A stretch of DNA of 12,350 nucleotides from a virus (lineage: Duplodnaviria; Heunggongvirae; Uroviricota; Caudoviricetes), in the IMG/VR virus record IMGVR_UViG_2534681699_000012. One strand, 5' to 3'. The notes beneath the pieces are model-generated. The model saw nothing but the letters and a program-made list of their open reading frames with translations. It was not told the DNA's origin and searched no databases. Below are positions 8,699 through 10,322 of this stretch, piece after piece. The position numbers were made by a program, and so were the translations under genes. The first letter of the stretch is position 1. Each line of letters opens with the position of its first letter.

Positions 8699-9282
8699 TG
8701 GCATTCAGAATGAGTGAACAACCACGGGCCATAAAAATTTATAATCTGCTGGCCGGAACTAATGAATTTATTGGTGAAGGTGATGCATATATTCCGCCTC
8801 ATACAGGTCTGCCAGCAAACAGTACCGATATTGCCCCGCCAGATATTCCGGCTGGCTTCGTGGCTGTTTTCAACAGTGATGAGTCATCGTGGCATCTCGT
8901 TGAAGATCATCGGGGTAAAACGGTTTATGACGTGGCTTCCGGCGACGCGTTATTTATTTCTGAACTCGGTCCGTTACCGGAAAATGTTACCTGGTTATCG
9001 CCGGAAGGGGAGTTTCAGAAGTGGAACGGCACAGCCTGGGTGAAGGATACGGAAGCAGAAAAACTGTTCCGGATCCGGGAGGCGGAAGAAACAAAAAACA
9101 ACCTGATGCAGGTAGCCAGTGAGCATATTGCGCCGCTTCAGGATGCTGCAGATCTGGAAATTGCAACGGAGGAAGAAATCTCGTTGCTGGAAGCATGGAA
9201 AAAGTATCGGGTATTGCTGAACCGTGTTGATACATCAACTGCACCTGATATTGAGTGGCCTACGAACCCTGTCAGGGAGTAA
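8698..9282 (+). CDS. tfa: Tail fibre assembly protein (Tfa chaperone)
   Basis: 194-aa ORF, same length as lambda Tfa as recalled. Start overlaps the stf stop (TAATG), suggesting translational coupling. Conserved C-terminal segment is duplicated as a remnant at 10170-10322. Confidence 0.9.
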
Positions 9283-9296
9283 TCATTGGGATTATG

Positions 9297-9329
9297 CCGC
9301 AGCACGTCTTAAGCAAGAACGTGCTGCGG
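9297..9329. terminator. Stem-loop between convergent tfa and methyltransferase genes (possible bidirectional terminator)
   Basis: ccgcagcacg-(13-nt loop)-cgtgctgcgg, a perfect 10-bp stem. Lies between the tfa stop (9282) and the minus-strand stop (9337-9339). T-run on the plus strand at 9340-9346. Confidence 0.4.
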
Positions 9330-9336
9330 TTGGATG

Positions 9337-10005
9337 CTATTTTTTCCCTGAAGCGGAAAACATTACTACAGTACCTTGAACCTTGGTTTTAACATTCTCG
9401 AAATGCTCTGAGAGTATATGTGTTAAGCCTTCTTCGGAATCTTTTGTGTTTGAAAAGATGCCTTTCTGATTGTAAATGCGCATCAGTTTTTGACCGAAGC
9501 TATTGTGCACAACTCCATCGCCAAGAATTGTGGCTCCGTATAGAGTTCCATCGTCAGTTAAGGCCTGCGCCGCATTGCGTATTACACAGCTTTTTGTAGA
9601 TATATTTCCAGGCAGGCAGTGAAGAAGGTAAAACATGGAAATGGAATCAAATTGACCATGTAACGCCGCGGGATAAGGTTCAAAAACATCATGGCTAATT
9701 TTATGTTTAATTTTTGATTCCCCAGCCCTTGTAGATGCCGCGTTCAGGCTAGCTTCGTTCAAATCCATTAAAGATATCAGACTACTCTCAGGTACGTGAG
9801 TAAGGTAAAACCCAGTTCCAACACCAATATCCAGATGGTTGTTACCTAAATGTTCCAGAAAGTGTGGAAGAAGGTGTTCCTTTGTAGGACATCCCCATGC
9901 AAGCCGATTTGATACTCCCAAAACCCACCAGTCATAAAGCTTTAGGGTAAGTGGTGTGTAAATTTTAGCCCCATCATCTGTGTTTTTTTTCATTAATTTC
10001 ACCAT
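9337..10005 (-). CDS. ybcY: Class I SAM-dependent methyltransferase (Rossmann fold), substrate unknown; prophage cargo gene
   Basis: 222-aa minus-strand ORF with glycine-rich SAM-binding motif I (LDIGVGTGF). No DPPY/NPPY-type DNA amino-methyltransferase motif seen. Noticeably lower GC than the tail genes. Symbol assigned from memory of the DLP12 context (tfa - methyltransferase - tfaX - appY - ompT), not from a search. Confidence 0.75.
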   Translation of the reverse strand: MVKLMKKNTDDGAKIYTPLTLKLYDWWVLGVSNRLAWGCPTKEHLLPHFLEHLGNNHLDIGVGTGFYLTHVPESSLISLMDLNEASLNAASTRAGESKIKHKISHDVFEPYPAALHGQFDSISMFYLLHCLPGNISTKSCVIRNAAQALTDDGTLYGATILGDGVVHNSFGQKLMRIYNQKGIFSNTKDSEEGLTHILSEHFENVKTKVQGTVVMFSASGKK

Positions 10006-10061
10006 GTTATAGTTTTATTTGTGAATTAAATCAATTATGGCAATGAATTACAAGGGGTTAA

Positions 10062-10322
10062 ATGCTGCCGCAGCATAGCGATATTGAAATAGCCTGGTAT
10101 GCTTCAATACAGCAGGAGCCGAATGGCTGGAAGACCGTCACCACACAGTTCTACATCCAGGAATTCAGTGAGTATATTGCGCCACTGCAGGATGCTGTAG
10201 ATCTGGAAATCGCAACGGAGGAAGAAAGATCGTTGCTGGAAGCCTGAAAAAAGTATCGGGTGCTGCTAAACAGTGTGGACACTTCCGTAGCACCAGATAT
10301 CGAGTGGCTTATTCAACCATAA
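10062..10322 (+). pseudogene. tfaX: Tail fibre assembly protein remnant (5'-truncated tfa allele with in-frame TGA)
   Basis: Encodes ...[49 protein letters not shown], matching the Tfa C-terminus ([53 protein letters not shown]). TGG to TGA change at 10245-10247. The N-terminal ~130 aa of a full Tfa are absent. Confidence 0.7.

Follow-up and report, generated by a model that had tools for sequence, protein, structure and literature searches.

Direct repeats of the tfa 3' end around a methyltransferase gene in a DLP12-type prophage: a probable old recombination junction and its deletion products

Why should the 3' end of a tail-fibre assembly gene occur twice in a prophage, with a single gene of opposite orientation between the two copies? 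The question is raised by a stretch of 12,350 nucleotides from the virus record IMGVR_UViG_2534681699_000012 (the window; all coordinates are window positions), the sequence of which identifies it as right-arm DNA of a lambda-like prophage of the DLP12 type, sitting at the DLP12/argU site. Open reading frame (ORF) listing and Pfam scans of the window gave the gene order K-I-J-lom-stf-tfa-MT-tfa'-appY-ompT, where MT denotes a methyltransferase gene and tfa' the second copy of the repeated segment. The locus is very probably the end of a DLP12-type fibre operon, composed of an intact tfa, a hairpin, an opposite-strand methyltransferase moron and a decaying tfaX, with the repeats mediating loss of the methyltransferase gene. 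A moron, in the concept of Juhala and Hendrix (works cited in PMC10057817), is an extra transcription unit between conserved lambdoid genes. The tfa-MT-tfa' arrangement is already known at annotation level, as tfaD-ybcY-tfaX of Escherichia coli K-12.

A repeat search of the window revealed one family of direct repeats, located at 9106-9262 and 10155-10311, the copies being 157 nt long, ungapped, 83% identical and offset by 1049. The original prediction had placed the recurring tfa 3' end at 9121-9260 with an identity of roughly 84%; its location was right and the identity to 10170-10309 was measured as 83.6%, with the repeat beginning slightly further 5', at 9106. As evident from the MAFFT alignment, similarity fades upstream of ~9106/10155 and stops at 9262/10311. 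The pairwise similarity is significant: BLASTN of homologous loci against the window returned the repeat pair with E = 1e-42 to 1e-46, and 2,000 shuffled versions of copy 1, slid along 10006-10400, gave at most 65/157 identities, versus the 130/157 observed. The longest perfect match between the copies measures 16 bp (GCAACGGAGGAAGAAA). Between the repeats lies, as predicted, exactly one sizeable gene of lower GC content, on the minus strand at 9337-10005; the GC content is 0.41 for its coding sequence (CDS) and 0.40 for the methyltransferase unit as delimited below, compared with 0.48 for tfa and 0.52-0.57 for stf, lom and J.

Copy 1 of the repeat (9106-9262, + strand) is part of an intact tfa (8698-9282, + strand, 194 aa), the chaperone gene that by its sequence is the equivalent of K-12 tfaD and lambda orf-194. 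The protein matches the whole Caudo_TAP profile (PF02413; positions 1-130 of 131, E = 3.8e-44) and is assigned to PHROG 105 (tail fiber assembly), and the gene directly follows stf, the stop codon of which overlaps the tfa start, like in lambda; copy 1 thus belongs to a full-length Tfa. Copy 2, contained in the tfa' segment at 10149-10311 (+ strand; the 3' part of K-12 tfaX), covers Caudo_TAP positions 75-130 only, corresponding to the C-terminal domain. The N-terminal domain was not matched by Pfam and the frame is interrupted, a TGA being present at 10245-10247 where tfa reads TGG, so that this copy does not qualify as a full Tfa. PGAP labels it a tail fiber assembly gene that is partial and contains an internal stop, and the K-12 tfaX CDS (61 aa, same TGA) corresponds to the window ORF at 10062-10247. 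Hence, copy 2 does not sit within an intact unrelated gene, which would have spoken against the original prediction, but is a tfa fragment. According to published work (PMC9608196, citing North et al. 2019), Tfa proteins are modular: the N-terminal domain, which binds the fibre tip, is variable, and the C-terminal domain, which serves oligomerisation, is conserved. The repeats are the segment encoding this conserved domain.

Comparison of the copies revealed 23 differing codons, 13 of them synonymous and 10 non-synonymous; this proportion of synonymous changes implies that the copies diverged as working alleles and do not stem from a recent duplication in place. Together, the data support copy 2 as a 5'-truncated, decaying remnant of a different tfa allele. 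The 3' half of the relic (10236-10311) occurs in at least two sequence types, one in the window, K-12 and Kati and the other in AVS0754, PhiR26_1, 2G7b and O157, with the 5' half being common to both. Two 3'-half types on a common 5' half indicate that the relic was patched by recombination with other tfa alleles, and since differences within the relic lineage stem from such recombination, dN/dS analysis of the relic is uninformative.

To follow the junction beyond the window, a set of eight sequences was aligned, comprising the window and seven loci, which come from different attachment sites (appY side, potB side and O157) and from viable phages (PhiR26_1, 2G7b and Kati). Apart from strain R12, which is without the relic, the stretch from the methyltransferase start into the relic was near-identical across the set, and the join between the methyltransferase side and tfa' was found at one position, 10148|10149. 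The right ends of the relic vary among the sequences, and its lesions do as well: the TGA is present in the window and in Kati, with K-12 tfaX ending at the same codon, Kati has two extra TAGs, 2G7b a 7-bp deletion, strain 5CRE51 a 1-bp deletion plus a TAG, and in O157 the relic is cut by IS66. This pattern fits a decaying pseudogene derived from a single event. A junction-spanning probe was covered to at least 80% in 3,442/5,426 complete E. coli genomes (~63%); the same coverage of the methyltransferase unit was reached in 3,798/5,426 (~70%), single genomes having as many as four copies and almost every match being at 95% identity or above. The common junction and its prevalence in 3,442 of the 5,426 genomes point to a single ancestral event. 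All 15 of the 15 phage records carrying the methyltransferase do so at ≥99% protein identity, the window protein is 100% identical to the copies in viable phages, and the module is found in the plaque-forming or inducible lambdoid phages PhiR26_1, PhiR29, 2G7b, ev243, Kati and Turner. The comparison with related prophages therefore bears out that the methyltransferase gene is present in some relatives and not in others, yet what it reveals is one old junction, no local accident.

Could the relic instead be a functional, stand-alone gene for the Tfa C-terminal domain, of 82-101 aa, read from the promoter region divergent to the methyltransferase gene? An ATG at 10062 does open a frame in phase into the tfa' segment, intact versions of 88-101 aa exist in some genomes and phages, e.g., AVS0754 and PhiR26_1, and these form PHROG 2341 as well as large protein clusters; moreover, RNA polymerase binds the ybcY/tfaX spacer in vitro and a tfaX promoter has been listed (PMC3946193). 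Against this, differing lesions (nonsense codons, deletions of 1 bp and 7 bp, IS cut) disrupt K-12 tfaX and five of the eight copies in the alignment, other copies have unrelated sequence in place of the 3' end, and PGAP flags the gene as partial or with an internal stop. In the window, the frame ends at codon 62, before half of the domain, and its first 29 codons are spacer, which in phage Ayreon runs into different sequence. A functional C-terminal-domain gene is thus very improbable.

The boundaries of the cargo were derived from relatives with and without it. Lambda is 93.7-93.9% identical to the window at the DNA level over tfa and the downstream hairpin, up to 9331, and diverges thereafter. 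Lambda, HK630, ev099 and strain MB07011 have tfa and the hairpin in common with the window and diverge at 9331-9336; MB07011, with a single tfa and no methyltransferase gene, matches to 9336 and then continues into its own chromosomal sitD flank. The GC-rich hairpin at 9293-9331, situated in the convergent gap between tfa and the methyltransferase gene, is also carried by lambda and by this homology belongs to the lambda-type backbone. RNA folding yielded −28.5 kcal/mol (z = −5.0) for the + strand and −23.6 kcal/mol (z = −5.3) for the − strand, making it a likely shared terminator for the two convergent genes. No terminator was called in 9100-10900 by a scan for consensus intrinsic terminators, because no T-run directly follows the stem; on the methyltransferase side, this same stable hairpin lies 3' of the gene, likewise without a T-run on that strand.

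The other edge was revealed by a Salmonella copy on IS- or plasmid-like contigs, which has 88% protein identity and 87.4% DNA identity over 9331-10062. Combined with the end of lambda homology at 9331, this defines the transferable unit as 9332-10062 (ybcY-type, − strand). It holds the methyltransferase ORF (9337-10005, − strand) and, at 10006-10062, ~60 bp of conserved promoter-like sequence with the match TTAACC-16-TG-CATAAT at 10061-10034; conservation of this upstream region extends to the homologues from Salmonella and Enterobacter. For K-12 ybcY, the promoter TTGATT-17-TATAAC has been listed, with in vitro binding to the ybcY/tfaX spacer by the RpoD holoenzyme (Genomic SELEX) as well as by H-NS (PMC3946193). 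In Enterobacter hormaechei and Salmonella enterica, homologues with 56-65% protein identity occur singly, amid ordinary chromosomal genes. Non-phage relatives and stand-alone contexts imply that the methyltransferase behaves as a moron, and the sequence comparisons support acquired cargo with a predicted promoter region of its own. Like other morons, the gene is found in some phages and not in close relatives at that position, shows a shift in composition (GC 0.40 versus 0.48-0.57 in tfa, stf, lom and J), has a promoter-like region and ends at a hairpin. Its site is the late-operon end where lambdoid phages collect cargo; lom, appY and ompT are nearby and, in O157, a Mn-catalase/ferritin block. 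What the definition of a moron does not include is the adjoining gene relic.

Phage Ayreon keeps 10032-10148 and diverges at 10148, ahead of the tfa' homology, which implies that the 86-bp spacer (10063-10148) travels with the methyltransferase side and is joined to the relic at 10148|10149. The Salmonella copy is without this spacer. No Pfam match was obtained for the spacer with the frames of both strands, and tblastn found a 54% peptide match in Klebsiella phages, which are themselves unannotated. A DinI remnant between the methyltransferase gene and tfa', suggested by a PGAP DinI pseudogene in two genomes, has no Pfam match; the sole similarity, 33% over 39 aa, is to the over-extended N-terminus of the Eeyore DinI CDS, which really lies upstream of dinI, and the candidate was not used.

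In-situ tandem duplication of the tfa 3' end, by a long target duplication upon insertion of the methyltransferase gene or by unequal crossing-over, and with subsequent drift of the copies, would account for their direct orientation and exact register, with an offset of 1049 and no gaps. It would also be in line with the 10-mer TGCCGCAGCA, which occurs exactly twice in the window and close to the edges of the methyltransferase unit, at 9295-9304 in the left hairpin arm and at 10066-10075. However, the copies are 17% apart, as opposed to 95-100% identity of the intervening DNA over ~3,800 genomes, and most of their differences are synonymous, as expected of two working alleles. The hairpin, with lambda homology to 9331, sits between copy 1 and the insert, and no transposase, integrase or terminal inverted repeats flanking the unit were found in ORF, repeat and Pfam scans. 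Neither does the locus conform to a transposon or insertion sequence (IS) insertion with target-site duplication, the repeats being 157 nt long and 17% diverged, with no inverted termini or transposase ORF in the window. The 10-mer was chosen after being seen, so its statistic is no test, and TGCCGCAGCA was rejected as a target-site duplication since lambda homology runs through the hairpin to 9331. Duplication in place is accordingly very unlikely. The 10066-10075 copy of the 10-mer lies 4 nt past the right edge of the unit, in the near-palindrome ATGCTGCCGCAGCAT (10062-10076); the pair, noticed post hoc, may represent insertion microhomology or a second hairpin remnant.

That the repeats could mediate deletion or further exchange, as the original prediction proposed, was substantiated by natural hybrid tfa genes without the methyltransferase gene. 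A synthetic deletion-product query, running from tfa to mid-repeat and then into copy 2 and its flank, gave a contiguous match in nine genomes, in which a full-length hybrid tfa immediately precedes the tfaX flank and appY. The hybrid of strain EM18-18-42 changes from copy-1 to copy-2 type close to the 16-mer, is annotated with an 'internal stop' and has the AGA and TGA codons of tfaX; its possession of the relic's nonsense codon shows that it derives from the methyltransferase-bearing form. A second hybrid strain (O169:H41) has a different crossover point. Further, 2G7b and strain ATCC 8739 have one unique join between fibre module and tfa in common, at the position equivalent to 9162. Downstream of this join, 2G7b has a copy-1-type relic, then the methyltransferase gene and tfa', and ATCC 8739 has a chimera that leads straight into the tfaX flank and appY, with no methyltransferase gene. 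At the first diagnostic sites the ATCC 8739 chimera is of the relic-1 type (4/4), thereafter of the copy-2 type (23/24), and this form was found in 236 genomes. By sequence, at least three independent crossovers are documented, and the recombinants show the diverged repeats to be substrates for homologous crossovers removing the 1,049-bp interval. Lambda Red favours exchange on short or diverged homology, and lambda recombines with Rac and Qin in stf-tfa (PMC3945230); by analogy, Red-type 'relaxed' recombination is the likely agent.

Taken in sequence, one old illegitimate recombination would have fused DNA ending in '...tfa (allele 1)-hairpin-MT-86 bp' with the interior of a resident tfa (allele 2), replacing the resident fibre module and stranding the 3' third of its chaperone gene. 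The composite would then have spread among lambdoid phages and prophages via ordinary homologous exchange, after which the diverged repeats could recombine homologously, with loss of the 1,049-bp interval and the methyltransferase gene. The original prediction of a tail-fibre module exchange that trapped cargo between two tfa alleles holds as regards the tfa remnant and the acquired methyltransferase gene; the trapping step is one that we infer, and the parent allele was not found.

Several points weigh against this reconstruction. When the 61-aa C-terminal peptide was searched against a large protein database, no full-length tfa with copy-2-type sequence (including '...FYIQEF SEYIAPLQ') was recovered, the 120 best protein matches being fragments of 50-105 aa; because of this, the donor allele of copy 2 is inferred, not observed. 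Searching phages by tblastn identified no donor either, all full-length Tfa matches having ≤80% identity. The origin of the spacer at 10063-10148 is unexplained, a 'distant' blastn search of phages finding only methyltransferase-bearing phages and Ayreon, and ybcY is a pseudogene in K-12. The longest perfect identity of only 16 bp is below the usual need of RecA, so that deletion should be rare. Finally, exchange between two different prophages or phages, instead of loss within one molecule, could have produced the hybrids.

The remaining explanations fare poorly. The arrangement might be actively maintained: the repeats might form a low-frequency Red-type switch by which the methyltransferase gene is shed or regained, or the intact 88-101-aa versions of the relic might supply a free Tfa oligomerisation domain modulating fibre assembly, the prevalence of junction and methyltransferase then reflecting selection on the module; we consider this hardly probable. 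Invertible segments of the Mu G, P1 C and e14 kind hold two tfa genes, and the related phages Kati and Eeyore carry a DNA invertase beside tfa, but descent of the structure from such a segment (Gin/Cin/Pin type), in which an invertase switches alternative tfa genes, can be practically dismissed, as the copies are direct and not inverted, ORF and Pfam scans of the window found neither an invertase gene nor another fibre C-terminal cassette, and the relic is without the allele-specific N-terminal domain that an alternative chaperone needs.

The arrangement in the window is closest to a known locus. The cryptic prophage DLP12 of K-12 MG1655 has the same genes, order, orientation and junctions in tfaD-ybcY-tfaX-appY-ompT (b0561-b0565; tfaD b0561, ybcY b0562, annotated as a pseudogene, and tfaX b0563, 61 aa), and its positions 4660-8069 in the locus extracted (L012) are 98.9% identical to window positions 8844-12255. 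It differs in that tfaD begins downstream of the aaaD (terminase) pseudogene, J, lom and stf being gone; the window is less decayed, with J, lom, stf and tfa as open full-length frames and an intact methyltransferase gene.

That tail-fibre modules are exchanged horizontally at conserved parts of tfa and stf was reportedly described by Haggard-Ljungquist in 1992 and by Sandmeier in 1992 and 1994. Exchange at these segments is also covered by De Paepe 2014 (PMC3945230). The present locus is similar in that breakpoints of several independent exchanges fall within the conserved last ~190 nt of tfa, at 9137 (Ayreon) and 9162 (2G7b, ATCC 8739), to which the join at 10148|10149 and the crossovers of the hybrid alleles add further breakpoints in the tfa end. 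Unlike in usual module exchange, a truncated copy was left, so that two directly oriented copies of the conserved segment enclose a cargo gene. In Ayreon (locus positions 3500-3740), 2G7b (4900-5101) and ATCC 8739 (3900-4111; L010, L008 and L011, respectively), other fibre modules without a full-length tfa are joined to a short tfa 3' relic, at the window equivalents 9137 in the first and 9162 in the other two. The database is rich in varied Tfa C-terminal fragments of 50-105 aa. Relic joins and many fragments imply that the exchange of fibre modules commonly leaves a stranded tfa 3' end as its scar. Further cargo is collected in the gap between the tfa stop and the hairpin and methyltransferase gene in other loci: O157:H7 Z887 (L005 217-3001) has ~2.8 kb with genes for a Mn catalase, a pair of ferritin-like proteins and one general stress protein, and Kati (L009 3256-5001) has a DNA invertase and small ORFs.

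The locus is a clean, well-documented case of lambdoid mosaic formation. As a discovery it carries little weight, with parts of the arrangement already forming PHROG families and its layout present in the K-12 reference annotation. It presents the Tfa C-terminal-domain segment as a seam for swapping tail-fibre modules and suggests how one illegitimate join can fossilise a gene fragment beside a moron, the diverged repeats then being reused and the cargo lost through short, 83%-identical homology. The methyltransferase, present in ~70% of complete E. coli genomes, may deserve attention of its own.

Its protein is a ybcY-type class I S-adenosylmethionine (SAM)-dependent methyltransferase with generic Pfam matches only (Methyltransf_11/12/23/25). 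Conservation in other genera extends to the AAGGTGA Shine-Dalgarno sequence, N5 and the second ATG but not to the first ATG, and homologues are mostly 218 aa long; the start is therefore probably the second ATG (9993; 218 aa), making the annotated 222-aa start four codons too long. The AF2 model (mean pLDDT 90.8) yielded best Foldseek matches with E = 4e-12 to 1e-9, TM ~0.56-0.67 and 13-21% identity. Structural neighbours are phosphatidylethanolamine N-methyltransferase (8ys9), juvenile hormone acid methyltransferase (7ec0), phosphoethanolamine methyltransferase (3ujc) and UbiG (4kdr), together with natural-product C/O-methyltransferases. Common to these small-molecule and lipid class I enzymes and the window protein are the Rossmann-type SAM-methyltransferase fold and the SAM-binding motif, here LDIGVGTG; their identity to it is only 14-21%. 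No specific family was assigned, NCBIfam scores being far below cut-off. Sequence matches to the PDB were marginal (E ~1e-3), and the protein falls into PHROG 2132, of unknown function. It did not group with DNA methyltransferases, the 50 best structural matches listed being all small-molecule, lipid or natural-product methyltransferases and Pfam matches being generic; catalytic motifs were not examined separately. Membership of a defence system was rejected, the only PADLOC match being sub-threshold (mad2, E = 0.003). The best guess from the model is a small-molecule or lipid methyltransferase, encoded by a putative lysogenic-conversion gene.

Upstream of the repeat structure, ORF listing and Pfam placed K at 23-592, I at 490-1161, J at 1222-4620 and lom at 4687-5286. 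The side tail-fibre gene stf (5345-8698, + strand, 1117 aa) has matches to phage_tail_N, Gp34_trimer, Collar and Phage_fiber. At its 3' end, inside the Phage_fiber match, five copies of a 20-nt unit (GGTGC-CATAC-CA...) at 8360-8595 look like an ordinary tail-fibre tip repeat. Downstream, the relic is followed by 556 bp of non-coding, AT-rich DNA (10312-10867, GC 0.25), the start of the appY/ompT cargo island, and the K-12 listing gives H-NS for the tfaX-appY spacer. The AraC-family regulator gene appY (10868-11617, + strand; HTH_18/HTH_AraC), outside the repeat structure and of interest as context only, is annotated under that name in two of the loci (L001 and K-12), and the 3' part of ompT is at 11867-12268 (− strand). 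Among viable phages with such cargo, Kati has appY and ompT, and 2G7b and PhiR26_1 have an alpha/beta hydrolase gene and ompT.

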